A stretch of DNA of 64,000 nt from Candidatus Micrarchaeota archaeon (GTDB lineage: Archaea; Micrarchaeota; Micrarchaeia; Anstonellales; Anstonellaceae), in assembly GCA_026413805.1 (NCBI GenBank), contig JAOAKE010000001.1:30199-94198 (forward strand), read 5' to 3'. The position numbers were made by a program, and so were the translations under genes. Below the pieces are notes generated by a model. The model was given only the letters and a program-made list of their open reading frames with translations. It did not search any database and had not been told where the DNA came from. This document shows, in pieces, positions 1,177 through 49,014 of this stretch; position 1 is the first letter of the stretch, and each line of letters opens with the position of its first letter.

Positions 1177-4100
1177 CTATGTGCTGCCTGCTTTTGGAAT
1201 TGGCTTTTTTGGGGGCTTTTTTTCTTGCCTGGGCTTTCGGATGAAGTAGTAAGCTGCTGCTGCAATAAATAGGATTGAAATGACTCCAAGGATTATAGAT
1301 GTGTCTTGCCCGCTTCCCTTTTTGGAGAGAAAGGCGCTTGAGGCGCCAATTGCCCGCTCTGATGCCAAGATGGAGTCTGCAAGAAGGGAAAGTGAGAGGT
1401 ATTCCTCTGCGCGCTTGACTTCTGCCTCAATTTGGGAAACTTCCTTTTCCTCTCCAGGAGATGCCTTTCTTTTTACTTCTGCAAGGGCTGCCTTTGCAAC
1501 CGAAAGCGAGGAGTGGGCAGAAGAGTTGAGGTTTTCAAGGGACTTTCTGACAAGCTCGCTTACAGAGACGAGTTTTTGGTAAGAGCTGTTTGCCTGCCTC
1601 AGCCCTGCAATTGAAGGCTTTTGCTTTTTTGCAGCTGCAAGGCCCTTTTCTGCATCGTCAATCCTTTGCTGTGCCGCAGAAGGTGAAATTGGAAGCTGCC
1701 TCTTTCCTTGCGCTGAAAGCGAGGCATATTGGGCAGAATACTTCAAGAGCAGCTGGTCGGTTTCCTGGCCCAGCCTTGAAAATTCAGCATCTATCCTTTC
1801 AAGCTCTGCGGCTGCCTGTGCCTCTGCTTCTTTCCCTCCTTCAAAGAAAGAAGAAAGAATCTGCTCTGCTTGAGAGGATGCTGAGAGGGCGCCAAGGTAA
1901 TTGCCAGCTGCAAAAAGGGAGTTTGCCTCGGATATTTTCTGCGCTGCCTCTGAAAGAACGCCTGCCTCTGCCCCCTCTTTTCTTGCCTTGGCATAGGCGG
2001 CTGAGGAATCCGAGGCTGCCTTCCAGGAGAGTGACGAGAGGGCTTCGCGAAACTCTGACTGGGCGCGGCGAAGCTGGCTGGCTGCCTTGGAAAGGCTTCC
2101 CTCGCTTGCCGCTTGCTGTGCCTCAACAATTGAGCTGTTGAGCTTGAGGATGAGGGAGGAGAGCTTCAAGGCACGCTCTGAAGCCCCATAGGCAGAAATC
2201 TTAGATTGGGTGGAAGATGCCTCAAAAAGAAGATAACTGGCTGTGCGGTTTTCTTCTGCAAATGCCTCTTGCTCTGCCTGGAAGGAAAGATAATCTGCTG
2301 AATTTCTGTTGATTTTTGACAAGATAGAAAGTGCTTCGCTTAGGCGGTTTTGCCCAATCAGAAGCTTTGCCTGTGCAAGGAGGCTGGCGTCTTGTGGCTT
2401 CTTGTAAAGCGCAACTTGCAGCTCGGCATTGGCAAGAGATTCGGATACAGCTGACTGCAGGTCTTCAATGGTGTATGAAACAAGAAACTCGGCAGACTGG
2501 TGGCGGCGCATGGGCGAAAAGTAAAATGAGATGGTCGTCTTTGAGGCTCCCTTGTCCAGCCTTAAGCGCTCTGCCCTTGCCCCGCTTATAGATTGGACAG
2601 AGAGTTCGGAAACCGAGGAAAACGGCTCTTCTAAAACCACCTTGGCGTATTCACAGTCAGCACGAAAATCTGAAGCTACTAAGGTATATGATACCCTTCT
2701 TTTCCCAGGCCCTATTTCCAAGTAGGACCTTTCGCTTTCTGAAAGCTTGAATGGAGAGGGCACGACAAATGAGACTTCAACTGAATTTGCGCCCTGCCTG
2801 ACTGAATTTATTTCTCCTGCAAGCACGGTGCCCGTGCCTGCGCCCTCTTTTGGGCTTAATTTTGTTTCCCTTCCTGCGAACCGGGCAGTGCCGCCAGCAA
2901 CACCATCCGGCGCTTTTTCCTCTATAAGCAGCCTTTCAAGGTCTCGGGAAGCAAAAAACTTGATGTTGCGGGTGAGGTAGGCTGAAGAGGAGTATGCTTC
3001 TTTGCACCACTCTTCAACAGAATTTACCTGGGCAGGGGAGTCTGACTTGCTAAATGTAAATGAATAGCTCTGCTGTGCTTGGACTTCGGGAAGGACAATG
3101 GTGGTTTTTTCCATTTCAGGATAGGCATCCACTATGCGGTCGCCAAAAGAAAAGTCTGAAGAATGAATTGGAAGGTCGGTTTTTGCCTGGAATGAAACCT
3201 CTGCAGAATAAGAGAGGGTGGAGGGATTTTTAGTCAAGATAGTGGCAAGGTAGTCTGATTTTCCGCCAAGCACTGCTGGGCTGCGCAGTTGTGATACCCA
3301 GGCGTTCTTAGAAAGAATTGCAGAGAGGTATTTGGGCACGCTTTTTTGGGCAACCTCGCTGTAGTAGTCCAGCTGGCTGTCAATCTCCTTTAGCCTTCCT
3401 GCCGCTTTCTTTACAAAGAGGCTGCCGCCCAAAAAATAGCTTGAAAGAGAGTCAAATTCTGGCAAAAAGCCCGGGCTTTCGCTTCGTATATTTTCAACAA
3501 TAGCCTTTGTTTTTTGGTATTTGGCTGGCAGGCCAGAATAAGCCTGGGAGAGCCTCTCAAGAAGGGCTTCTTCATCGTCTTTCAAGGCAGCTATTATGGC
3601 ATCTGCCACCTCTGGAAGCTCTGTTGAAGAAAGAAGCTGCATATATTGGGACAGCTTCCATTCCTCATATGAAACATCAAGCCCGTCTGCTTTTGCATTT
3701 CGCACAAGGCCGCTGAATTCTGAAAGCTGCCTTTGGGCTTCGCTTTTGATTCCAATAAGCCCGCTTTGCTGAAGTGCAGCTGAGGCATGGCTGGCAAGCC
3801 TTGTAGCCTCAGCATAGGCGCTGAATTTTTCACCAAGTGATGGAAGATAGGCTGCCTTGGAGCGCATTTCAATGGCGCGCTGGAGCAGTGAGCTTGAAAG
3901 GTTCTTTGCCTTTGCTTCTTCCATGCTTGAAGGCGTATATGCGGAAATCTTTTGCTGCACCCTTTCTATTGAAGTGTCGGCAAGCTCTTTTTGAAAAGAA
4001 ACCGCTTCCTGCGCATTTTTCAAGACAAGCGCAACTGAGAGAAGGGAGTAGTTGGCTTTTTTCTCAGCAGACTGCGCCTTGGATATGGCGTCTGCAAGAT

Positions 4101-5265
4101 AGCCGGGGGCTGCAGTGTTTGCATATGACGCCTCAGCGCCCCTTAATATTGCCTGGGCCTCCACAAGGCCCTCCCTTGCAGCAAGAAAGCCAGAATATAT
4201 CCCAGATGAAACAGGGGAAACCTCAATTCCTCCTTCCAGATTCCCTGCCTGCGCCGGGCTGTCGGGTATGAGGTGGAGCTTCTCGTCGCTTAGCAGGCTT
4301 ATTTTGGTTTCAAGGGAGGAGAGGGCGGCCTGGGCGGACAGGCGCGCAGATTGATATTCTCCGTTCATCTCCTTTTGTGCCTGCGAAAGGCTGGAATAAA
4401 TCGCAGCAAGCTGCATTATTGAAGATGAGTTTTGCCTGCCTGCAATTTTTTCAAGGTAGGATGAAAATCCGTAGCCTTCAAATGAGGGTAGGTCGGGCCT
4501 TGAAGACGCCCTGCTTGCGATTTTCCTGCCTTGCTGGGCTTGGAGGCAGATGGGCGAGGTGGGCGAAAGCTGTGACTTTGCCTCAAAGAATCGCCGCTGC
4601 GCCTTGCCAGTGTAATGGGGCTCGCCAGCGCCTGCGTCGGAGAGCCATTTCATTTTTTCATCTACCTTGTCTGCAAGGGCAAGGAGAGCCTCATTTGCCC
4701 TATCAAATGTGTCAAATGAGTTGGAATATGCCGACCAGAGGCTTTCATGGTAGGATAAGATGTAATTTGCTACCTCATATATGTTGAGAATCTCTGATAA
4801 TGCAGATGCCATTATTTTTGGAGTTGGTTCAAGAAGAGGCGCAGTAATTACCAGATAAGCAGGGCCTTTTTCTTGCAGCTCTTTGATTGAATTTTTTGCC
4901 TTTACTGATGAGACATGGGCTTTTAGGGAGGCATTCTTTGCCATCAAGAGCGATTCAGAGGCTTCCTTTAGCCTCTCAGAAGAGGCTAAAAGCTCGCTTC
5001 TTGCTTCAGGCGCCAGCATCCAGTTAAAGTAGTCTTTGTCTGCAAGGGTGAGCTGGGTTATTCCAAGCGACTGGGAAGCGTTGTCAAACTCAAATGAGTA
5101 AAAAGTCAGCCCCCAGAATTTGGCTATGAACGGGTTGCCTTGGACGTAATTGGGCTCGTTCCAAAAGCGAACAAGTGGCTCTACTTGTACGCAACTGCTT
5201 GCATATGAGGAGAAGGCAGGCTGAAGAAAAAGTAAAAATAGAAAGAGCGCCTCCCCACGCCTCAT
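1177..5265 (-). CDS. giant (1362 aa) secreted alpha-helical/coiled-coil surface protein with N-terminal signal peptide and C-terminal TM anchor plus basic tail; S-layer/stalk (tetrabrachion-like) candidate
   Basis: Long uninterrupted ORF; N-term MRRGEALFLFLLFLQPAFSSYASS signal; Ala/Ser/Leu/Glu/Gln-rich heptad-like sequence throughout; many N-x-S/T sequons; C-terminal hydrophobic segment ILGVISILFIAAAAYYFI followed by RKPRQEKKPPKKPIPK. Confidence 0.6.
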   Translation of the reverse strand: MRRGEALFLFLLFLQPAFSSYASSCVQVEPLVRFWNEPNYVQGNPFIAKFWGLTFYSFEFDNASQSLGITQLTLADKDYFNWMLAPEARSELLASSERLKEASESLLMAKNASLKAHVSSVKAKNSIKELQEKGPAYLVITAPLLEPTPKIMASALSEILNIYEVANYILSYHESLWSAYSNSFDTFDRANEALLALADKVDEKMKWLSDAGAGEPHYTGKAQRRFFEAKSQLSPTSPICLQAQQGRKIASRASSRPDLPSFEGYGFSSYLEKIAGRQNSSSIMQLAAIYSSLSQAQKEMNGEYQSARLSAQAALSSLETKISLLSDEKLHLIPDSPAQAGNLEGGIEVSPVSSGIYSGFLAAREGLVEAQAILRGAEASYANTAAPGYLADAISKAQSAEKKANYSLLSVALVLKNAQEAVSFQKELADTSIERVQQKISAYTPSSMEEAKAKNLSSSLLQRAIEMRSKAAYLPSLGEKFSAYAEATRLASHASAALQQSGLIGIKSEAQRQLSEFSGLVRNAKADGLDVSYEEWKLSQYMQLLSSTELPEVADAIIAALKDDEEALLERLSQAYSGLPAKYQKTKAIVENIRSESPGFLPEFDSLSSYFLGGSLFVKKAAGRLKEIDSQLDYYSEVAQKSVPKYLSAILSKNAWVSQLRSPAVLGGKSDYLATILTKNPSTLSYSAEVSFQAKTDLPIHSSDFSFGDRIVDAYPEMEKTTIVLPEVQAQQSYSFTFSKSDSPAQVNSVEEWCKEAYSSSAYLTRNIKFFASRDLERLLIEEKAPDGVAGGTARFAGRETKLSPKEGAGTGTVLAGEINSVRQGANSVEVSFVVPSPFKLSESERSYLEIGPGKRRVSYTLVASDFRADCEYAKVVLEEPFSSVSELSVQSISGARAERLRLDKGASKTTISFYFSPMRRHQSAEFLVSYTIEDLQSAVSESLANAELQVALYKKPQDASLLAQAKLLIGQNRLSEALSILSKINRNSADYLSFQAEQEAFAEENRTASYLLFEASSTQSKISAYGASERALKLSSLILKLNSSIVEAQQAASEGSLSKAASQLRRAQSEFREALSSLSWKAASDSSAAYAKARKEGAEAGVLSEAAQKISEANSLFAAGNYLGALSASSQAEQILSSFFEGGKEAEAQAAAELERIDAEFSRLGQETDQLLLKYSAQYASLSAQGKRQLPISPSAAQQRIDDAEKGLAAAKKQKPSIAGLRQANSSYQKLVSVSELVRKSLENLNSSAHSSLSVAKAALAEVKRKASPGEEKEVSQIEAEVKRAEEYLSLSLLADSILASERAIGASSAFLSKKGSGQDTSIILGVISILFIAAAAYYFIRKPRQEKKPPKKPIPKAGST

Positions 5266-13713: not shown

Positions 13714-14607
13714 TTAGAGCTTTATGAAGTAAAGGAGTATGTCTCCGAAGGCTATGGCAACAAGCAAGCCAAGAAGAAGATGAGGAAGGAAAAATGGCAT
13801 TCCAGTATAAACCGGTACTTTCTTCACTCCTGCCTTTTTGAGAAGTTCAATTGACTTTTTTGAAAGAAGGGGCTGCAAGGCGAGCCTCTTGACAACTGCG
13901 TGGTCCATCCTTTCAAGCGCTATCACATCTTCTTCTTGAAGGGCAGATGCTGGGACAAATTCCACCATGCTGTCTTTGATTTCCTCCCTGAAAAGAGAGA
14001 AGAAAAGCAGAGCAACAAAAAGAAATGATAGTAGCCAAAGGTAAACTGGCGAGATAGAAACAGGCAGCGAAATGAGGTTAAACATAAAAAAGCAGAAGGC
14101 TGCGGTTAATAGGATAGGCCCTATTAGCCTTGTGGAATTGAAATGCACTTTGCCCTTTGCAATGCTGCTTGCAACGAAAGGAACAAACCTAAGAAGCATG
14201 TGCGCAATGAAAAAAATCCCTGTTGGGGCTATCACTGACAAAATGAATGGGTAAGGGGCGGCCGGGGCATCTGGCACGAGGATTGGTTTTGGCAGGACTG
14301 GAAGCAGGGCTGAAATAGAGGCAAGGGCATAGACGTCTGCCCCGCCAAGCTGCCCTGCCTTGTAAAGAAGGTAGGCTATGCCAAAGACAACTGCAAACAG
14401 CGCGAATCCAAGAAGAGACGCCTCCCAATCAAAAAATACAATGTTTGAAAGCAGGGCTGCTGCTGCAAACCCGTAGACCAAGGCATTCGGAACCCATTTC
14501 TTTTTGAAGACATCAAAATAGGCTGCGACGGCAGTGAATGCCACTGCCAAAAAAATGCGGATTTCAATCCCCGGAACTGACGAGGGAAGGTCCATTATGC
14601 CAAACAT
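13714..14607 (-). CDS. archaeal type IV prepilin/preflagellin peptidase (A24 family, PibD/FlaK-like)
   Basis: Polytopic membrane protein with conserved Asp motifs incl. GGADVYALASI (second catalytic Asp box). Confidence 0.7.
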   Translation of the reverse strand: MFGIMDLPSSVPGIEIRIFLAVAFTAVAAYFDVFKKKWVPNALVYGFAAAALLSNIVFFDWEASLLGFALFAVVFGIAYLLYKAGQLGGADVYALASISALLPVLPKPILVPDAPAAPYPFILSVIAPTGIFFIAHMLLRFVPFVASSIAKGKVHFNSTRLIGPILLTAAFCFFMFNLISLPVSISPVYLWLLSFLFVALLFFSLFREEIKDSMVEFVPASALQEEDVIALERMDHAVVKRLALQPLLSKKSIELLKKAGVKKVPVYTGMPFFLPHLLLGLLVAIAFGDILLYFIKL

Positions 14608-16675: not shown

Positions 16676-18001
16676 TTAGCCCCCTATTTTTTTCAAGTCA
16701 AGCCCAGAGCCTTGGAGCATCTTTTCTATCCGCTTTCGCATCCCTCGGTTCTTTTTAACTTGGTTGAACAGGTTGTTGACCCTTTCAAATTGTGCAAGCA
16801 GCTCTCGTACCTCTGCCTCGGATGTGCCAGAGCCCCTTGCCACCCTCTCTATCCTTGATTTCTGCTTGCGAAAAAGGGAGGCGTCCTCGCGCTCTTGCGG
16901 AGTCATTGAGTTTATTATGCTTTCAAATTTCTTGAGCTTCTCCTCGCTTGTCCTTACCACTTCTTGTGGCATGTCAGCTGCGCCGAGCATTGAAAAAACT
17001 GAGGAGAGCGGGCCGAGCTTTTTTGCCGCCTTAAGCTGCTCATAAAAAACCCTCAAGGTAAGCTTTTCCTCGGCTGTTTCAGGCAGCTTTTCCTCTTCTG
17101 CTATCTTCTTTACTTTTTCAATCAATGTGCCAATGTCTGGAAACCCAAGCAGCCTGCCAACAAACTTTTGCGAGTCAAATGGCTCAAGCGCGTCCATCTT
17201 TTCTCCAGTGCCAATGAATGCCACCTTTGCCTTTGAGGCTGCAACTGCAGAGAGCGCGCCGCCTCCCTTCCCGCTTCCGTCCATCTTCGTTATTATTACT
17301 CCTGAAAGCCCAACTGCCTGGTGGAACTGCTCTGCTTGCTTTCCAGCAATCTGCCCGATGTCTGCTGAAATGACAAGGAACTTTTCGTCTGGGAGAAATT
17401 CTTTGTTGATCTCTTTTAGCTGCTCTACAAGAGGCTCTTCAAATGCGCTCCTGCCAGAAGAATCGCAAATTATTATGTCTTCTTTCCAGCGCCTGCTCGC
17501 CTCTGCGATGATTCTTTTCACGTCCCTTTCCCCTTTTATCCCGTAAAAGGCCGCCCCTGACTGCCGTGCCACCTGCTCTAGCTGCTCATAGGCAGCTGGC
17601 CTGTCAACATCGCAGGAAACCATCGCAACTGAAAGGCCGCGAGATTTGTAAAAGTGGGCAAGCTTGCCTGCGGTTGTGGTCTTGCCGCTTCCATACAGCC
17701 CAAGGAGAAGAATTTTGTGGGGCTTTAGCGAGGGCTCGTATTTTTCGCCCATCAGCAAGGAAAGCTCTTCATAGACCACTTTTACGACATGCTCGCGCAA
17801 CGACAGGCCTTTTGCAAGCTTGGAGTCAAGAGCACGGCTTTCAATCTTTTTTGTCAGTTCAAAGACAAGCTTGACATTCACATCTGAGGAAATCAGGACG
17901 CGCTGGAGCTCGCGGCACAGCGATTTTACTGCCTTTTCATCAGCAATCGGCGCTCCTGTGAATTTTGCCAGTGCTGCCCTAAGGCTCCTTCCCAAGTCCA
18001 T
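16676..18001 (-). CDS. srp54: signal recognition particle protein SRP54
   Basis: GLYGSGKTTTAGKLA Walker A, DSSGR, M-domain Met-rich C-terminus. Confidence 0.9.
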   Translation of the reverse strand: MDLGRSLRAALAKFTGAPIADEKAVKSLCRELQRVLISSDVNVKLVFELTKKIESRALDSKLAKGLSLREHVVKVVYEELSLLMGEKYEPSLKPHKILLLGLYGSGKTTTAGKLAHFYKSRGLSVAMVSCDVDRPAAYEQLEQVARQSGAAFYGIKGERDVKRIIAEASRRWKEDIIICDSSGRSAFEEPLVEQLKEINKEFLPDEKFLVISADIGQIAGKQAEQFHQAVGLSGVIITKMDGSGKGGGALSAVAASKAKVAFIGTGEKMDALEPFDSQKFVGRLLGFPDIGTLIEKVKKIAEEEKLPETAEEKLTLRVFYEQLKAAKKLGPLSSVFSMLGAADMPQEVVRTSEEKLKKFESIINSMTPQEREDASLFRKQKSRIERVARGSGTSEAEVRELLAQFERVNNLFNQVKKNRGMRKRIEKMLQGSGLDLKKIGG

Positions 18002-18165: not shown

Positions 18166-18381
18166 ATGGGACAGAAGATTGGAAATGAAAAAATAAAGCG
18201 CGAAGACGGCTACCTATACTACATCGGAAAGGACGGGTATGTATGGGCAGCCCCAATGAAGCACAACAAGGGCGGCCGAAAGAAAAGAGTAGGCACTGAG
18301 AAGATTGAAAAGCAGGATGGCTACATGTATTACGTCGGAAAGGACGGATATGTGTGGAAGTCCAAGATGAAGAATGCTTGA
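18166..18381 (+). CDS. small (71 aa) basic protein made of two tandem repeats (EKIx[KR]xDGY[LM]YY[IV]GKDGYVW), hypothetical
   Basis: Internal duplication visible in translation; strong RBS GGAGGTG 7 nt upstream of ATG; no Cys/His. Confidence 0.5.
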   Translation: MGQKIGNEKIKREDGYLYYIGKDGYVWAAPMKHNKGGRKKRVGTEKIEKQDGYMYYVGKDGYVWKSKMKNA

Positions 18382-18522
18382 ATGCCTGGATTTTTCCTGA
18401 AAATTTCGGCGGGGCGCATGCCTCGCCATTTTATCTTTTTTATCCCTGCGCTTTTTCTTCTTTTGATTTGGCCCCATCTGCTGTGCGATAGAAATTAAAA
18501 GCCCAAGTGCGCTTCTTCCATC

Positions 18523-20847
18523 ATGGGATGCAGACCATCTTATCAAGGAGGGCGGCTGGTGATGGATTGCCCAACCTGTGGGCTTGGGCTTACCACCCCG
18601 CAGTGCATCAACTCACACCTCAAGGTAACTTCGCAGCTGACTAAGCCGTGGAGCACCATGAGGTATGAAGAAGAAGTGGTGGTGGACCTTGACGAGGAAA
18701 AAACTGCAATGATAGTTGAATATGATGCGCTTATCCGCCAGGTTGAAAACATCATGCTCAACCCAAAAACATACGGCAGGCCTGAAGACGAAAGATACAC
18801 GCAAAGAAGGAAGCTGCTGAAAGACTTCTACGAATATATGTTCATGAACCCCCTTGTTGCTGCGCAAGTGCTGAAAGACTATAGCGAGCCATACCCTGAA
18901 AAGGCGGTTTTTGTAGAGGGATACCGCAATTTTCAAGCCTGGATAAACGGAATACGCGAAGCCTACGTAAAATCTTCTTTGTACCTTCTGTGCCAAAAAA
19001 CAGGAGACTTGCGCTCTGCATTTCTTGCCCTGATGGGGCTCAAGTCGCTTCTTTTTGTCCAGAATTTCATGCTCTCCCTCCCAAAGGACGCCATCCCCAT
19101 AAGCGCCAGCGCTGGCGGCGAATATGAGCTGGATTATGGGATGAAAGTAAAAATATATGAGCTGCCTGGCGGCGAAGCCCACCTTTACACGATTGAAAAC
19201 CCAGTGATTGAAAACCTGCCAAGGGAGCTGCAAGAAATGATGAAAAACGCCATACAGGAAGGGCTGAGGGAAATCCACCAGGTCTTAGACTACGGCACGG
19301 TCTTTGATGACAGGAGCAGGGAGTATACGCAACAATTTATTGACAAGGCAACGCTTGAAAAAATACCGATTACCCAAGAGCAGGCAATTGCGATGGGAAG
19401 GGAGGCTGCTGCATGGGTGGTTGGGCTTGGCGCCCCGATAGAAAACATTGCGCTGGACCGGGAAAATATCACAGACATCTACATAGACAGTGAGAACACT
19501 CCGATATACATAGAGCATGCAAAGTTTGGGTTGTGCCATACCCTGTGGCGCTACAACCATGAAATGCTGGAAAACATGTTCAAAAACATCATTGCCGCTG
19601 GAAAAGGAAGCAAGCGCTTTGACCATGCCTCGCCCATTGTTGATGTTGTGCTTACGCGGCTGGCGATGAGGTGCCACCTCCAGCGCCCGCCTGCCACCTT
19701 TGGCGAGCTTCAGGCTGCGCTGAGGATAATGAGGGACCGCCCATTTACCTACCCGATGTATATAAACATGCATACTGTAAGCCCGTTCTTTGCAGGCTAC
19801 GACGACGTGATGGTGCAGCTTGGATGCTCTGAGGCAGTGCTTGGGCTGAAAGGCGTTGGGAAAACCGCATTTACTTCGACAAAGATTGCAGCCATTGGCA
19901 CCAAGCGGAGGATATTGCCGATTCAAGACATTGAAGAAATCCCGACCAAGGCATATAGAAAAAGGGGCTTTCACATAGGGGCTGTCCAGGTCCAGTCGTC
20001 TGACAGGGAAGAAATCGGGGGCGGAAGCGAGCTGGACTTGGTTTCCATGACAAATGCCGCCCTGCGCATGGGAGATGCCTGCGTCATAATAAATGAAATT
20101 CGTTCCAGGCTGGCAGTGCAAGGTGTAATAAACTTGCTTAATTCCCAGCCCGGCATATTCCTCCTTTACAACCTGCATGCAAGGTCGCTAAAAGACATAC
20201 AAGACCGGCTGGAGCTGGTTTTCGGCCTGCCAGCTGCCTCAATGTTTTCAACAGACCGCTATTCTTTCCTTTGGAAGGTTCGCTACGGAAGGAAAACGAG
20301 GATATACCGCATGCTCGGGCAGCAATATGAAAGCGATGTAAAGGAGCATAAGTTCGTGGAGGTTTTCAGGTTTGAAAGGGGCAACAGCCCCGAGACTTCT
20401 ACTTTGAAATGCTTCTTTTGCCCAATGCCTGAAGCAGAGGCAAAGTCCCTTTCAAACATAGACTTGGTAAAAACGCAAAAGAACCTCAAGCTCAGCTTTA
20501 TCCCCCCTGCCCTTGAAAGGAGGGCGGCTGACAGCGGCATTGACGCCAAGCAGTATATCATGGAGGCGTTCTTCAAAGGGAAGGTTTATTCGCAAATAGT
20601 TGAGGCTGCTGAAAAATACAAGCAGCCGCTGCTTTTAGAGCTTGACTTTACGCTAAAGTGCACCACCAAGGCGAACAACATCCTGAAAAGCTGCACCAAT
20701 GCCAATGGCGAAGTGGATTGGGCTGCTGTTGAAAGGGAGTGGAAAAAGGGGTTTGCATCGCTTGTTGAAAATGAGATAAGGCAGATGGCAGCTGAAGAAG
20801 AGGAGAGGGCTTCAAAAAAGAAAGAGAAGGGGGCGCAAAAATCATAG
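18523..20847 (+). CDS. divergent type II/IV secretion-system ATPase (FlaI/GspE/VirB11 superfamily) with N-terminal Cys-cluster zinc-ribbon-like segment and ~200-aa C-terminal extension
   Basis: N-domain ITDIYIDSENTPIYIEHAKFG, P-loop GLKGVGKTA, Walker B/Asp box ILPIQDIEEI, His box LYNLHARS, arginine-finger region ALRMGDACVIINEIRS; probable true start ATG 18562 (MDCPTCG...) preceded by GGAGGG. Confidence 0.65.
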   Translation: MGCRPSYQGGRLVMDCPTCGLGLTTPQCINSHLKVTSQLTKPWSTMRYEEEVVVDLDEEKTAMIVEYDALIRQVENIMLNPKTYGRPEDERYTQRRKLLKDFYEYMFMNPLVAAQVLKDYSEPYPEKAVFVEGYRNFQAWINGIREAYVKSSLYLLCQKTGDLRSAFLALMGLKSLLFVQNFMLSLPKDAIPISASAGGEYELDYGMKVKIYELPGGEAHLYTIENPVIENLPRELQEMMKNAIQEGLREIHQVLDYGTVFDDRSREYTQQFIDKATLEKIPITQEQAIAMGREAAAWVVGLGAPIENIALDRENITDIYIDSENTPIYIEHAKFGLCHTLWRYNHEMLENMFKNIIAAGKGSKRFDHASPIVDVVLTRLAMRCHLQRPPATFGELQAALRIMRDRPFTYPMYINMHTVSPFFAGYDDVMVQLGCSEAVLGLKGVGKTAFTSTKIAAIGTKRRILPIQDIEEIPTKAYRKRGFHIGAVQVQSSDREEIGGGSELDLVSMTNAALRMGDACVIINEIRSRLAVQGVINLLNSQPGIFLLYNLHARSLKDIQDRLELVFGLPAASMFSTDRYSFLWKVRYGRKTRIYRMLGQQYESDVKEHKFVEVFRFERGNSPETSTLKCFFCPMPEAEAKSLSNIDLVKTQKNLKLSFIPPALERRAADSGIDAKQYIMEAFFKGKVYSQIVEAAEKYKQPLLLELDFTLKCTTKANNILKSCTNANGEVDWAAVEREWKKGFASLVENEIRQMAAEEEERASKKKEKGAQKS

Positions 20848-22155: not shown

Positions 22156-22211
22156 AGCAGCGCCAACTGAATGATGGCTGGCTTGTGCTTATAAATGCCA
22201 AAGATAAAAAA

Positions 22212-22643
22212 ATGGGCATGGAAGTTGAGCGCGCGCCAGATGTTGAAGCGCTGGTTTCGGACATCGTAGGCGTCCTTTTCCAGGAGCACATAAATGAGTT
22301 TAGGATAATCTGCATGCGCTCAAAAAACGCCACTGCCAATGCCTATGCGAGAATTTGGAACCTGCCGAAAATCTGGCAAAAGGCGCTGGATGTCAAGGCA
22401 TTTTACATAATTGAAGTCCTGTCGCAGCACTATGACTTGCTGCCTCGCGAAAAAAAAGAAAAGGTGCTCATCCATGAGCTTTTGCACATCCCCAAGACTT
22501 TTTCAGGGGCCCTTCGGCCGCACAGGGGGAAAGTGAAAATAAATGAGCGCACTGTGGACGAGCTACACAGGATTTATAAGGAAAAAAAGAGGGGCAAAAA
22601 GGACAGCCTAAGCGGGCTTGAAATTGCTGAAGAGTCATTTTAG
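22212..22643 (+). CDS. small putative zinc metallopeptidase-like protein (HExxH)
   Basis: VLIHELLHIPKTFSGALRPH motif; track start 22185 is GTG, ATG at 22212. Confidence 0.45.
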   Translation: MGMEVERAPDVEALVSDIVGVLFQEHINEFRIICMRSKNATANAYARIWNLPKIWQKALDVKAFYIIEVLSQHYDLLPREKKEKVLIHELLHIPKTFSGALRPHRGKVKINERTVDELHRIYKEKKRGKKDSLSGLEIAEESF

Positions 22644-41387: not shown

Positions 41388-42911
41388 ATGTGTGGCTTGC
41401 TGTCTGCCCAAAAGGTGCTTTCTGGGGAGGTTGCAGCCAGGACCTTTTTTGTCCGCCCGCCAGAGCCCGTCCCTCAACTGTTGGTCTCAAGCCCAGCAGA
41501 ATCGATATACATCGGAAAGACCAAGCTGTTAAAAGTACCTTTCTTTTGGAACCCAGCCAAGCTAATCAACCCTCATCTGTGCATTGTGGGCATTACAGGC
41601 TCTGGCAAATCCTATTTTGTAAAGGCATTCACTACCCGCGCACGCCTTGTTTTCAATGCCAATATCCTCATACTGGACTGGGCGGGCGAATATGTGGAGT
41701 GGGTGCGGCTCGCAGGCGGCAAGGTAATTTCATTTGGCGAGAACGGAATCAACCTGCTAGACCCCGGCCAAGCCACCCCGGAGATTCGCATGCGGCAGGT
41801 AATCTCTGCATTGGAGATGCTTACCGACTTGGCAAGCTTTCCTTCGCAGCGCTCCCTTACTGAAGAAGCTATAGAAAAGGCGTACTTGCAGAGGGGCCTT
41901 TCCTTGAACAAAGCAGGTCAGCAAAAAAAGCCACCTACCCTTGCAGAGGTGCACGCCATTTTAAAAAAGGATGCAAAAAGGTCCCAGGCAGCCTCTGAAG
42001 CAGCAAGGAGGGTTAATTCCCTTCTGCTTTCATCTGGCAAGTCATTTTCTCACTCTACCATTGGGATAGACTCAATCCTCTCGGGCCTTGTGTGCATTGA
42101 TTTGCACTCCCTGCCAACCGAGTCTCTAAGAAGCCTTGCAGGCCTGACAATACTTCAGTTCATTAAAGACAGGATGCGCTCCGAGCAGTTCCAAGCAGAG
42201 GGCAGGCCCAGGCTCTTTGTGGTGGTTGACGAGGCTTGGAAGATTGCTTCTGATGAGCGCTCCGATGTAATCTCCATCGTGCGGGAGGGCAGAAAGTATG
42301 GCTTTGGGTTGATAATTGCCTCCCAAAACCCAACTGACATTCACAAAAGCATTTTTTCAAATGCAGGGACAACATTCATCTTCCGCCTGACCCTTGCCTC
42401 CGAGCGCGAATACCTTCGCTCTTCCCTTTCTTATTCAGACTATTATGAAGAAGCCTCGCATAGCATGGGGGTAGGGCAGGCCCTCGTCCACATCGAGCCA
42501 GCAGCAGCAATCCCCTGCCCGCGCAATTTCATAATAGATAAAGTCGACGGAGAGCCCCTCCTCGAAGTTTGCTATATTTGCGGTGGTGGCATGAACCTTG
42601 AAATGGAAAAAGAATTTTTGGTGCGCAAGCTGCATAATTTCGGCTTGACTGAAAGGCAGGTCGCCCACCTGCTTGGAAGGTTTGAGCGAGGAAGCTTTAC
42701 TTTAGACGCCCCAACCTTCATTTTAGAGCTAGAGAAATTTGGGCATAGCCGCGCTGCAATAATTATGCTTTTGCGCGACCTCGGGGCCCATGAAAAAGAC
42801 CTTCTTCGCCTTTTCTCATCAGCATTTCAAAAAGGCAAGGCAAAGATTTCAGTGGAGCTATCTACAGAAAAGGAAAAAGAAAAAAGCCGGAGGCAGAAAA
42901 ACAAACCATAG
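41388..42911 (+). CDS. HerA/FtsK-superfamily ATPase with DUF87-like domain (VirB4/CedB/HerA-like)
   Basis: P-loop HLCIVGITGSGKSYFVKAF, Walker B LFVVVDEAWKIA, downstream GFGLIIASQNPTD typical of DUF87/HerA-like ATPases. Confidence 0.65.
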   Translation: MCGLLSAQKVLSGEVAARTFFVRPPEPVPQLLVSSPAESIYIGKTKLLKVPFFWNPAKLINPHLCIVGITGSGKSYFVKAFTTRARLVFNANILILDWAGEYVEWVRLAGGKVISFGENGINLLDPGQATPEIRMRQVISALEMLTDLASFPSQRSLTEEAIEKAYLQRGLSLNKAGQQKKPPTLAEVHAILKKDAKRSQAASEAARRVNSLLLSSGKSFSHSTIGIDSILSGLVCIDLHSLPTESLRSLAGLTILQFIKDRMRSEQFQAEGRPRLFVVVDEAWKIASDERSDVISIVREGRKYGFGLIIASQNPTDIHKSIFSNAGTTFIFRLTLASEREYLRSSLSYSDYYEEASHSMGVGQALVHIEPAAAIPCPRNFIIDKVDGEPLLEVCYICGGGMNLEMEKEFLVRKLHNFGLTERQVAHLLGRFERGSFTLDAPTFILELEKFGHSRAAIIMLLRDLGAHEKDLLRLFSSAFQKGKAKISVELSTEKEKEKSRRQKNKP

Positions 42912-42920
42912 GGTGTTCCC

Positions 42921-43766
42921 ATGTCGTTGAAAGAAAAAACGATAAAGCTTGATTTCTCCATCCCAATTTTTTTCAAGGGAAGCTGGCCCCCAGACACCTC
43001 TTTGCTTGCAGCAGCTGGCTTTGACTCAATCTCAATATCTTCCCGAGCCTTAAAGATAACTAAAGTGCATGGCACTGATTTGGTTGGCACCCCGAACAAC
43101 ATGACTCAAATAACCATACAAAAAGGCAGCGCCACAATCACCATTCTCGCCCCAAGCCAAACTGATGAAGAAGCTGCCAAGATGAGAGCAATACTTATTT
43201 TTCTGCGAGTGGCTCGTCTCATCCCAGGCTTATCTGCCGAATTGTCCAAAGTCTCAGAACTTATCCTGCCTTCGCTCGAGGTGGCAAATTCCATCTTTTC
43301 TTCTTCTTATGATTCGCTTTTGAAAAGGCATAAAGACTTGGAAGAGCTGTTTTATGAGGAGCAGAAAAAGAACAAGCAGCTTGCAAAAATGTCTGAGGAG
43401 CTTGCAGCTTCCAACCTTGACCTTGAAAAGCAAGTCGGGGAGCTAAAGGAGTGGCGGCGCAGGCTCGAAACACTGCCTGATGAAGCCCTCTGCGAGCTGG
43501 TGCTGGATTGGGTCAACACCCATAGGGGCACATTCAGCCTGCCAAGCTTCTCCAAAGCCACGGGGGTACCGCCTGCAAGGGCAGAAGAAGGGCTTGAAAT
43601 GCTTCTTAAAAAAGGCGTCCTTCGCCGTCTGAAAAGCGGGTTTGCCCAAGAGTCTTCCCTTGCTGAAAGGCAGTTTGAAGTGAAAGGCCTCTTGCCAGGG
43701 AGGGCAAAAGATTCAATCTATCGCTGGCTGCGCAACACCTTCTCTTCATCTATCAAAAACAAGTAG
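42921..43766 (+). CDS. hypothetical protein, N-terminal alpha/beta domain, central coiled coil, C-terminal winged-helix-like region
   Basis: ATG with AGGGTG RBS 10 nt after ATPase stop (operon-like); no catalytic motif. Confidence 0.45.
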   Translation: MSLKEKTIKLDFSIPIFFKGSWPPDTSLLAAAGFDSISISSRALKITKVHGTDLVGTPNNMTQITIQKGSATITILAPSQTDEEAAKMRAILIFLRVARLIPGLSAELSKVSELILPSLEVANSIFSSSYDSLLKRHKDLEELFYEEQKKNKQLAKMSEELAASNLDLEKQVGELKEWRRRLETLPDEALCELVLDWVNTHRGTFSLPSFSKATGVPPARAEEGLEMLLKKGVLRRLKSGFAQESSLAERQFEVKGLLPGRAKDSIYRWLRNTFSSSIKNK

Positions 43767-48184: not shown

Positions 48185-48384
48185 GCTCTCGCTTTTCATG
48201 TGAGAGGTTAATAAATTAAAAAGATGTTGCGAGGAGGCTGCAGGGCAATCTGCTATTGCAGTTGCCTATTGAGCGGCGGCTGCCAATTGGCTGCGCTGCC
48301 TTTGCTGCAATTTGCAACAGCCTGCTGCAGGCTGCCTGCAAGGTTTTTTATCATTCTGTTGCATATCTTTAATCGGTGGGGGGA

Positions 48385-48627
48385 ATGAAGGCACAAATTT
48401 CTGTAGAAGCCCTAATCGTGCTTGCCGTTTTGCTAGGCGTGGCTCTCCTTCTTGCCTCAGTAATGTTTCGCAGCGCAGGGAGTGCTGCTGAAAGAATTGA
48501 AAAGAAAGCCAACGAAACATTCTCCGTGGTTGAAGGGGGCGGTAAGGCAAAGGCAGGCGGCTATTGCCGCTCTGATGCTGATTGCGAATCATTTAGCTGC
48601 GATACTTACTCTAACCGATGCAACTGA
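48385..48627 (+). CDS. archaeal type IV pilin-like protein with class III signal peptide and Cys-rich C-terminus
   Basis: MKA|QISVEALIVLAVLLGVALLL matches prepilin-peptidase site pattern; RBS GGTGGGGGG; C-terminal CRSDADCESFSCDTYSNRC. Confidence 0.6.
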   Translation: MKAQISVEALIVLAVLLGVALLLASVMFRSAGSAAERIEKKANETFSVVEGGGKAKAGGYCRSDADCESFSCDTYSNRCN

Positions 48628-49014
48628 GTGATTGCCTTGGCAAAAGGGCAGCTTTCAACTGAACTGCTGGTAGTATTTTTGGTTTTCCTCGCCCTTCTCG
48701 GGCTCTCACTTGCAGCAATAGACCGAACTCTACGGGTTTCACAGCAAAAGATAAGCCAAGCAAAATTTGATTCTGCCTTTGCAGATTTCTACTCCAAGCT
48801 TGAGTCAGCCTGCAGCCTCGGGGAAGGGAATGTTCGCCATTTTGCAGTTGAGGGGGGCAAGGCATCGGTTTCTGCAAGCGGCACAGGCTTTACTCTTTCT
48901 CTCTTTGGCATTTCAAAAAGCGGCTCCTCTTCCTGCGAGATAGAGATAGCTGACGAAGCCCCATCAGAAACCTTTACAATATCCAATAAAGAAGGCAAGC
49001 TGGTAATTTCATAA
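48628..49014 (+). CDS. archaeal type IV pilin-like protein with class III signal peptide
   Basis: MIALAKG|QLSTELLVVFLVFLALLGL classic KGQ-hydrophobic prepilin motif; immediately follows first pilin gene. Confidence 0.65.
   Translation: MIALAKGQLSTELLVVFLVFLALLGLSLAAIDRTLRVSQQKISQAKFDSAFADFYSKLESACSLGEGNVRHFAVEGGKASVSASGTGFTLSLFGISKSGSSSCEIEIADEAPSETFTISNKEGKLVIS

Follow-up and report, generated by a model that had tools for sequence, protein, structure and literature searches.

The gene at 18523..20847 on the forward strand of the window, the 64,000-nucleotide stretch of a Candidatus Micrarchaeota archaeon contig analyzed here, encodes a divergent ATPase of the FlaI/GspE/CpaF-type secretion (T2SSE) superfamily, and is referred to below as the orphan ATPase. 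The reading that we favor, with a confidence that reaches about the halfway point, is that the protein is an active, lineage-specific orphan paralogue of a type-IV-filament motor, probably acting in trans on a platform whose gene lies at another site in the genome. Judged from sequence comparisons, the group to which it belongs appears to descend from the long (~750 amino acids, aa) type-IV-filament ATPases of DPANN archaea and Hadarchaeota. The family already carries a generic annotation in public records, is unstudied, and does not constitute a new kind of system; the point of interest is that an orphaned Micrarchaeota group is conserved like a housekeeping gene, whereas the same architecture is found inside the pilus operons of sister lineages.

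Catalytic core and architecture of the orphan ATPase

The complete coding sequence, as defined by the open reading frame (ORF) call and by alignments, is one unbroken ORF of 774 aa plus stop, with a GC content equal to that of the rest of the window. Its translation is 100% identical to the deposited protein P0001, which is named in GenBank 'MAG: ATPase, T2SS/T4P/T4SS family [Candidatus Micrarchaeota archaeon]'. Among the best 120 of 453 homologues, which had 56-83% identity over 72-100% of the query, all those with a named organism came from Micrarchaeota, Micrarchaeia, Anstonellaceae (a family within the class Micrarchaeia) or Gugararchaeum. Since the deposited protein is identical and hundreds of full-length homologues are colinear with it, a frameshift or a fusion of two ORFs, which the initial annotation had asked to be checked, is excluded.

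The same annotation had recognized in the protein all of the core FlaI/VirB11/GspE blocks, and these were borne out, as the N2 domain, Walker A and B, Asp box, His box and Arg region could be aligned and were near-invariant (motif invariance and cysteine counts were scored over 167 non-redundant Micrarchaeota orthologues). Residues ~266-567 align with CpaF, afGspE and FlaI. A phmmer search of the PDB returned CpaF (8e-9), afGspE 2OAP (2e-8) and FlaI (5e-5), and matches to NCBIfam models were obtained for TadA/CpaF TIGR03819 (1.2e-17, residues 281-564; 64.2 bits, below the cutoff of 373), the FlaI equivalog NF058587 (3e-13, residues 242-563; 49.4 bits, below the cutoff of 550) and VirB11 TIGR02788 (33.7 bits, below the cutoff of 250). 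No Pfam family, T2SSE PF00437 included, matched the 774-aa ATPase at E<=1; a precomputed PF00437 assignment is present on a few orthologues, and that in the syntenic Anstonellaceae locus L005 is marked as 'faint'. As NCBIfam, the PDB sequence search and the fold search agree, we take the Pfam miss to reflect divergence and not a lack of homology. The full-length AlphaFold2 (AF2) model had a mean predicted local distance difference test (pLDDT) score of 74, with confident N- and C-terminal thirds and parts of the core that were poor (<50). From this model Foldseek recovered the two-domain fold of N2 and RecA-like domains, the matches being afGspE 2oap (3e-15, target TM score 0.70, 572 columns), FlaI (1.7e-14) and CpaF (6e-12); those to PilB, PilT, VirB11 and DotB were far weaker, with PilT chains at E ~4e-4 or worse.

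In the initial annotation the Walker A motif had been described as a degenerate P-loop, a description that does not hold. The motif, GLKGVGKTA (residues 441-449, 19843..19869), aligns through GLKGVGKT (441-448) with CpaF GGTGSGKT, fits GxxGxGK[ST] exactly and differs only from the 'G.TGSGKTT' spelling; GLKGVGKT[ASCM] was found in all but a few of the 167 orthologues. The Arg region RLAMRCHLQRPPATFGELQAALRIMRD (residues 379-405, nucleotides (nt) 19657-19737) lies in the N2-like domain and linker (19423..19752), placed by CpaF and afGspE alignments, and the Asp box PIQDIEEIP (residues 466-474, 19918..19944) aligns with CpaF 'TCEDAAEL'. Walker B with the catalytic Glu, GDACVIINEIRSR (residues 517-529, 20071..20109), has as its core DACVIINEIRSR (residues 518-529), including IINEIRSR, which is aligned to CpaF and afGspE. 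The His box is YNLHA (residues 549-553, 20167..20181), where relatives have GTIHG, with an invariant H552. All of these elements are on the forward strand. R383, R401, D469, E472, E525 and R527 are invariant both in the Micrarchaeota group and in its long DPANN and Hadarchaeota relatives, and the Walker B spelling N-E-I-R-S is derived, the long relatives having G-E-V-R-G. The orphan ATPase is predicted to be a catalytically competent motor of the PilB/FlaI type and is presumably hexameric.

Among solved proteins, afGspE (2OAP) and FlaI (4II7/4IHQ) are the best structural matches and have the N2 and RecA-like core and its motifs in common with the orphan ATPase, but they are ~500 aa long and do not have the ~170 N-terminal residues, the insertion in the C-terminal domain and the tail. 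CpaF/TadA (8RKD, 9E24; TIGR03819) is both the best solved sequence match and the best NCBIfam match; unlike the orphan ATPase it is operonic and is without the N- and C-terminal modules, and core identity is ~24%. CpaF is a motor that acts on TadB/TadC platforms.

It had also been noted that the protein is ~250 aa longer than usual, and this was confirmed against afGspE, FlaI and CpaF, but the excess does not take the form of a unique 200-aa C-terminal extension. Residue 139 of afGspE aligns with residue 310 of the orphan ATPase, so that the main extension is N-terminal and comprises ~170 aa. The C-terminal excess over afGspE is ~75 aa, part of which is a variable Glu/Lys-rich tail, and ~130 aa of the C-terminal region correspond to the length of the usual archaeal GspE/FlaI C-terminal part. 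The C-terminal domain (residues 571-745, 20233..20757, forward strand), which carries ELDF and VDW..W..F motifs and was delimited by alignment and by AF2 (pLDDT 85-96), aligns with those of DPANN and Hadarchaeota relatives. The lineage-specific C-terminal parts are only an insertion of ~39 aa (residues 630-668, nt 20410-20526) and the tail (residues ~746-774). The insertion was otherwise found only in the Hadarchaeota protein P0161 ('DLSNVDLDKARKSLSF' versus 'SLSNIDLVKTQKNLKLSF'). The tail is a low-complexity, Glu/Lys/Ala-rich segment (20758..20844, forward strand) that varies among orthologues from 0 to >150 aa, with 19% identity.

At the other end, the family-specific N-domain (residues ~45-300, 18655..19422, forward strand) contains an invariant Y48-E-E-E51, a helical bundle (58-171), a small beta-meander (200-225) and a helical hairpin (234-300). 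A solved relative of the N-terminal ~170-aa extension was looked for and none was found. The protein begins with a beta-hairpin and a Cys knuckle, a putative Zn site (residues 1-32, 18523..18618, forward strand; from alignments and AF2), which the initial annotation had read as a zinc ribbon starting with MDCPTCG. The Cys motif is indeed present, but the gene starts 13 codons earlier: the first 13 residues, MGCRPSYQG.RLV, which supply C3, are kept in the homologues, and this places the start at 18523 and not at the internal Met. The knuckle residues are C3, D15, C16 and C19 (C16-x2-C19), C28 and H32; in the AF2 model strands span 4-8 and 11-15 and a helix 26-37, with the knuckle Cys on the hairpin and at the start of the helix. 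No aligned Micrarchaeota sequence departs from D15 or H32. The four Cys are all present in 69 of the 167 orthologues, a further 20 being N-terminally truncated gene calls, and 63 of the 167 have Leu/Met and Phe in place of C16 and C28, so that the motif does not define the family. It appears to be ancestral in the wider family and to have been kept by only about half of the Micrarchaeota orthologues. As the consensus of the long DPANN relatives has C..DCxxC..C, what was called a zinc-ribbon N-terminus is better described as a remnant of an ancestral Cys-rich module. Bacterial GspE and PilB carry a tetracysteine Zn motif in their C-terminal domain, whereas in the orphan ATPase the Cys cluster stands right at the N-terminus, and half of the orthologues can do without it.

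The N- and C-terminal domains of archaeal type-IV-filament ATPases were reported to be generally subsystem-specific and are thought to be interaction surfaces, and in 'system 2' extended ATPase N-termini were described together with a single platform gene (bioRxiv 10.64898/2026.04.22.720090). Since the preprint gives such extensions as a general trait, they are as such already known.

Conservation and genomic context of the group and its long relatives

A profile search of 1.84 billion representatives gave 428 hits in total. The Micrarchaeota proteins formed one tight 50%-identity cluster (members >=53% identical) scoring 1418 bits, and the next full-length proteins scored ~150 bits; the orthologous group, as sampled by this search, would seem to be confined to Micrarchaeota/Micrarchaeia. 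Identity to the window protein across the 167 orthologues was 79% in the core, 58% in the N-domain and 54% in the C-domain. When the window was compared with locus L005, the ATPase was 75% identical, close to SRP54 (77%), DRG (75%) and PolB (72%), while the DHH phosphoesterase (60%), GatDE (57%), Pus10 (53%) and the A24 peptidase (51%) were less conserved. In the distant locus L002 the corresponding values were 58% for the ATPase, 64% for DRG and 45% for DHH. By the measure of these identities, the orphan ATPase is under housekeeping-level constraint, similar to that on SRP54.

In a neighbor-joining tree of the ATPase core (100 bootstraps) the Micrarchaeota group was monophyletic in 100/100 replicates and sat on a long branch. 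It joined the Hadarchaeota proteins P0161 and P0220 at the base of the set in 67/100, a position for which long-branch attraction is possible. Core identity between the group and the long relatives was 26-31%, and 52-58% among the long relatives themselves. A long stem followed by strong conservation fits a change or a specialization of role.

Gene neighborhoods of the orphan ATPase were examined in six genome loci and 80 metagenome loci (86 altogether). A T2SSF hidden Markov model (HMM) built from 60 platform proteins gave 0 hits in these 86 neighborhoods and in all ORFs of the window, compared with 63 hits in 80 control loci, in agreement with the earlier statement that no FlaJ/TadC-like platform gene is clustered with the ATPase. 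A search of the window for a platform by tblastn with Hadarchaeota and DPANN neighbor proteins, and by crude transmembrane (TM) segment counts of its ORFs, was likewise negative; no further T2SSE or T2SSF gene was found in the rest of the window, and no archaellum genes were found in it. Two membrane proteins were considered as hidden platforms and rejected, namely a recurrent upstream 8-TM protein, which is SecD, and an 813-aa, 11-TM protein in locus L093, which is a homologue of the PTPS-related membrane protein of the window and not of T2SSF.

In the window the ATPase follows SRP54, Pus10, PolB, an A24 prepilin peptidase and a 71-aa protein, and downstream of it lie a convergent DHH phosphoesterase, GatDE, a DRG GTPase and an H+-PPase. 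No pilins stand beside it, the immediate neighbors being housekeeping genes and the 71-aa protein. The dispersed pilus-related genes listed by the initial annotation were confirmed with a small correction. The A24 prepilin peptidase (13714..14607; Peptidase_A24, 32.3 bits against a cutoff of 26.5) provides the window with a class-III signal peptidase. The pilins proved to be two adjoining pilin-like ORFs on the forward strand (48376..48627 and 48628..49014, together 48376..49014) with the class-III signal peptides MGGMKAQ/ISVE and MIALAKGQ/LSTE; these lie between topoisomerase I and a HAD hydrolase, ~28 kb from the orphan ATPase, with no ATPase or platform gene near them.

Across the loci the recurrent neighbors were an aminotransferase (23 loci), SRP54 (20), the DRG GTPase (15), SecD (14, 9 of them with SecF), a ~140-aa protein (12), DHH (11), an asparagine-synthase-like protein (11), a Ser/Thr kinase (9) and the 71-aa protein (9). 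SecF-SecD was found on the same strand, 2-5 genes upstream, in 14 loci by clustering and in 17 with a SecD probe. In the clade of the window SRP54 is an upstream gene on the opposite strand; another clade has it directly downstream, on the strand of the ATPase. Export-related genes near the orphan ATPase were seen in L118 (4394..7200), L136, L125, L157 and others, in L115, L116, L120 and L124, and in the window at 16676..18001, and two distant clades have the A24 peptidase-Pus10 pair 4-9 genes before the ATPase. Both the export-gene and the A24-Pus10 proximity may reflect ancestral synteny and not functional linkage.

The long relatives present a different picture. These proteins of 690-800 aa have ~20% identity to the window protein and align with it end to end, with profile matches from position 4-13 to ~620-740 in P0139, P0140, P0153 and P0161. 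They have a common architecture of an N-terminal Cys knuckle, helical N-domain, N2, RecA-like domain and C-terminal helical domain; their consensus starts C ... D-C-x2-C-x8-9-C, with two more CxxC pairs in the helical N-domain, and their catalytic motifs are G.RG.GKTS, GEVRG and GTIHG. A scan with their profile, using one genome per species, gave >=593 loci from Iainarchaeota, Woesearchaeota, Pacearchaeota, Nanoarchaeota, Nanohaloarchaeota, Undinarchaeales and metagenome-assembled genomes (MAGs) labelled as Micrarchaeota, and 80 of the loci were kept. The gene directly after the ATPase, on the same strand, encodes a protein of 690-810 aa with 8-12 predicted TM segments in 58 of these 80. PF00482 (T2SSF) is assigned to homologues of this protein, whose names include 'type II secretion system F family protein', and the next genes are pilins with KGQ/AFS class-III signal peptides.

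Thus the long type-IV-filament ATPases of Iainarchaeota, Woesearchaeota, Pacearchaeota, Nanoarchaeota, Nanohaloarchaeota, Undinarchaeales, Altiarchaeales and some Micrarchaeia are like the orphan ATPase in domain order and length, in the C..DCxxC..C motif, the helical N-domain, the N2 and RecA-like domains and a C-domain that ends in VD[WY]..W..W. They differ from it in having T2SSF and pilin genes directly after them, an arrangement seen in 0/86 neighborhoods of the orphan ATPase, in the motif spellings (G.RG.GKTS, GEVRG and GTIHG as against GLKGVGKTA, NEIRS and YNLHA), and in the two extra CxxC pairs of the N-domain, which the orphan ATPase has lost. By the published descriptions they are probably of the 'system 2 / clade 2' kind, arCOG01818 or arCOG01817 (PMC4858521, PMC5498576, bioRxiv 10.64898/2026.04.22.720090). 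The proposal of the initial annotation that the orphan ATPase is a paralogue co-opted for another function is partly supported: a secretion ATPase paralogue uncoupled from any platform gene was found in the window and in 79 loci of the group, and it lies on a long branch. The atypical features on which the proposal was based occur in platform-linked relatives as well.

The Hadarchaeota proteins P0161 and P0220 (746 and 664 aa) are closer to the orphan ATPase in spelling, with derived E-x-R-S and H-A motifs, but at ~22-29% identity they have kept a membrane partner and have a Walker A of the form GxxGTAKTS. It is here that the motif is truly degenerate (GDIGTAKTS or GAIGTAKTS), with the second Gly changed to Ala. 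Their ATPase genes are followed by a 652-aa polytopic protein and by small proteins with an N-terminal TM segment. Homologues of the 652-aa partner were found in Hadarchaeota only and none in Micrarchaeota, and as all of them are from Hadarchaeota the source of P0161 and P0220 was placed there. The Hadarchaeota locus L007 (10001..14200) also encodes a 318-aa protein with a faint HPr-kinase-C hit.

Two further traits of the long relatives may be recorded. An alignment of P0136, P0139, P0140, P0144, P0147, P0153, P0155, P0161 and P0186 displayed up to seven conserved Cys in the N-domain of the long DPANN ATPases (C, DCxxC..C and two CxxC), a pattern that suggests two metal sites or an Fe-S cluster; a description of this multi-Cys pattern in DPANN pilus ATPases was not found in the cited literature. 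In Woesearchaeota and Nanoarchaeota loci (L034-L089) a trio of genes recurs before the ATPase-platform pair, at positions -3 to -1; the first, on the forward strand, encodes a protein of ~180 aa with 5-6 TM segments, and the other two, on the reverse strand, encode soluble proteins of ~220 and ~125 aa.

Possible roles of the orphan ATPase

Micrarchaeota are obligate, host-attached DPANN archaea, and little is known about the way in which they hold on to a host and trade material with it. Against this background the orphan ATPase stands out as a candidate for a core function of the cell, one that defines the lineage, and its history offers a natural experiment on the change of partner and role in secretion-superfamily ATPases, operon-bound in sister lineages and orphaned in Micrarchaeota. 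In the course of events that we favor, the ATPase gene would have left the platform-pilin operon in Micrarchaeota, diverged sharply, and then come to be held under housekeeping-level constraint. The protein would form a ring on the cytoplasmic side of the membrane that binds and hydrolyzes ATP, would dock in trans on a T2SSF-type platform whose gene is located elsewhere, and would serve as a second, dedicated motor of the type-IV-filament machinery, as PilT and PilU do on PilB-PilC. Such a motor might drive extension, retraction or export. The bacterial PilT and PilU are paralogues of the assembly ATPase that are encoded away from the platform and pilin operon; they are very strongly conserved and serve the same platform in trans. 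PilT is ~350 aa long and without N-terminal extensions, and its likeness to the orphan ATPase is one of functional analogy only; no PilT model was among the NCBIfam matches of the orphan ATPase and the structural hits to PilT were weak, which speaks against membership of PilT (COG2805). It was reported that archaea have no PilT family (PMC4858521). If the orphan ATPase is a second motor on a pilus platform, it bears on how archaeal pili might be retracted without PilT.

A platform does seem to be at hand in the class. Among the names attached to the platform homologues are 'Candidatus Micrarchaeia archaeon' and 'Candidatus Norongarragalinales archaeon', and in those loci a 749- or 763-aa ATPase (GSRGSGKTS, GEVRS, GTIHG; PF00437) directly precedes the T2SSF platform. 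As genomes labelled Micrarchaeia carry this orthodox pair, a platform is available in the class and action in trans is at least as likely as co-option, and the orphan ATPase appears to be an additional paralogue beside the orthodox motor of the class. The flanks of the orphan loci and of the orthodox ATPase-platform loci had no housekeeping genes in common. Type IV pilus genes were previously reported in MAGs of Norongarragalinales, Gugararchaeales, Burarchaeales and Anstonellales (PMC8561730), and in Mia14 two pilus loci were described (PMC5498576).

Several observations weigh against a motor acting in trans on a pilus platform. The co-occurrence of the orphan ATPase and the orthodox pair is supported at the level of the class only and not per genome, and a direct link of the orphan ATPase to a platform, pilin or accessory gene was seen in 0/79 loci. 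The N-domain, where docking would presumably take place, shares only ~20% identity with the N-domain of the platform-linked relatives, the core is equally far from its architectural relatives (26-31%) and from CpaF/afGspE (24%), and AF2 pLDDT falls to 30-60 at residues 360-407 and 465-504 of the ATPase core. The comparison with PilT, for its part, is an analogy. With so distant a core, the protein may quite possibly have changed its partner or its function.

One alternative is that the protein is the ordinary PilB-like extension motor of a Micrarchaeota pilus whose partner genes have been scattered in a small, rearranged genome. The architecture is that of operonic pilus ATPases, the pilin-like ORFs and the A24 peptidase are themselves dispersed in the window, the A24-Pus10 pair accompanies the ATPase in two distant clades, and 'type IV pili present' was scored for these orders (PMC8561730). 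We consider this alternative unlikely, though not to be dismissed, as the operon of an orthodox long ATPase, platform and small proteins in Micrarchaeia seems already to fill the assembly role, the orphan ATPase has the derived NEIRS and YNLHA motifs and a long branch, and the conservation of the pilus peptidase falls far short of its own (51% as against 75%).

A different possibility, which we also judge to be unlikely while giving it some weight, is that of a neofunctionalized ring motor outside of the pilus that would power some other essential membrane process, candidates being Sec/SRP protein export and the uptake or exchange of macromolecules with the host; if this were so, it would represent a new use of the T2SSE ATPase family. 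The ATPase is as conserved as SRP54 and DRG, it is a single-copy, stand-alone gene across the group, set among translation and export housekeeping genes, it has SRP54 as a neighbor in 20 loci in two configurations and SecF-SecD upstream in 14-17, and it has diverged to an extreme degree from pilus-linked relatives. These neighbor links are loose, however, with intervening genes, mixed orientations and one clade each, and may be inherited synteny; by a rough estimate, ~2 of 6 arrangement types near one of ~10 export genes is not significant. The N- and C-domains, moreover, are those of pilus ATPases. Sec/SRP export comes into question since archaea are not known to have SecA. That a T2SSE ATPase should cooperate with SecYEG would, to our knowledge, be without precedent, which also counts against this possibility.

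A bolder version is that the protein is an essential motor across the group that has either abandoned pilus assembly or come to antagonize it, be it a retraction ATPase, such as archaeal type IV pili are not known to have, that pulls the symbiont onto its host or an energizer of the SecA-less Sec/SRP export. The latter would fit the SRP54-like conservation and the repeated proximity of SRP54 and SecDF, but we hold the bolder version to be rather improbable. That the gene is an artefact, a pseudogene, a gene fusion or conjugative or viral VirB11-like cargo can practically be dismissed in spite of the Pfam T2SSE miss and a length unusual for the superfamily, given the invariant catalytic motifs, the window-like GC content, the stable housekeeping synteny and the hundreds of colinear orthologues. 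A mobile-element origin was rejected separately, as phage and plasmid collections gave core-only matches of 22-25% identity to CpaF-type genes.

Transcript signals and other genes

A TATA-like box, GAAATTAAAAG (18491..18501, forward strand), is centered ~27 nt 5' of the ATG of the orphan ATPase gene; it was read from the sequence, and its function is predicted from archaeal promoter geometry. A/T boxes ~24-25 nt before the ATG are also present in the divergent orthologous loci L005 and L002. T-runs at ~18430-18465 lie 3' of the upstream 71-aa gene, and T-runs or a hairpin follow the upstream gene across the loci compared. From the spacing of the TATA-like box in three divergent loci and the terminators of the upstream genes, it is most likely that the ATPase gene has its own promoter and gives a monocistronic, leaderless mRNA. 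At its 3' end the coding sequence is overlapped by 6 nt by the convergent DHH gene.

The 71-aa basic protein (18166..18381, forward strand) is built from a ~30-aa repeat (EKI.R.DGY.YY.GKDGYVW...MK) that occurs twice. Nine orthologous loci encode the protein, which in L005 has the same position and 80% identity; its gene has its own terminator, a hairpin in L005 and T-runs in the window. No Pfam hit was obtained, and the only PDB sequence matches were to designed beta-propeller 'Cake' proteins (E 2e-5), on account of which the repeats look like propeller blades. In the clades with 53-61% identity, a conserved cytoplasmic protein of ~140 aa (MGILD..., ...HYRDY.HV.NS.KK..LR.V) is encoded directly upstream of the ATPase and transcribed divergently from it (reverse strand in L001 9474..9893, L002 9397..9813 and L004 9525..9947; nine further loci have it). 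Neither the window nor the DPANN pilus loci contain this protein, and it gave no match in Pfam or the PDB. As the sole uncharacterized recurrent neighbor, it is a candidate partner of the orphan ATPase.

A few other genes of the window deserve mention. The ORF at 22185..22643 (forward strand) matches the 'putative phage metallopeptidase' family PF18894 (2e-19) and is 65-67% identical in the distant loci L001 and L005; its being kept among housekeeping genes in distant Micrarchaeota marks it as a conserved gene of the cell, as opposed to the cargo of a prophage. On the reverse strand, 1177..5265 encodes a protein of 1362 aa that has a signal-like segment at its N-terminus and a hydrophobic one at its C-terminus; it matched no Pfam domain significantly and is likely to be a large protein of the cell surface. 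At 41388..43766 (forward strand) a HerA/DUF87-type ATPase (507 aa) is followed by a 281-aa protein without a Pfam hit, which may be a NurA-like partner; this ATPase is the second of the FtsK-HerA superfamily in the window and is unrelated to the finding on the orphan ATPase.

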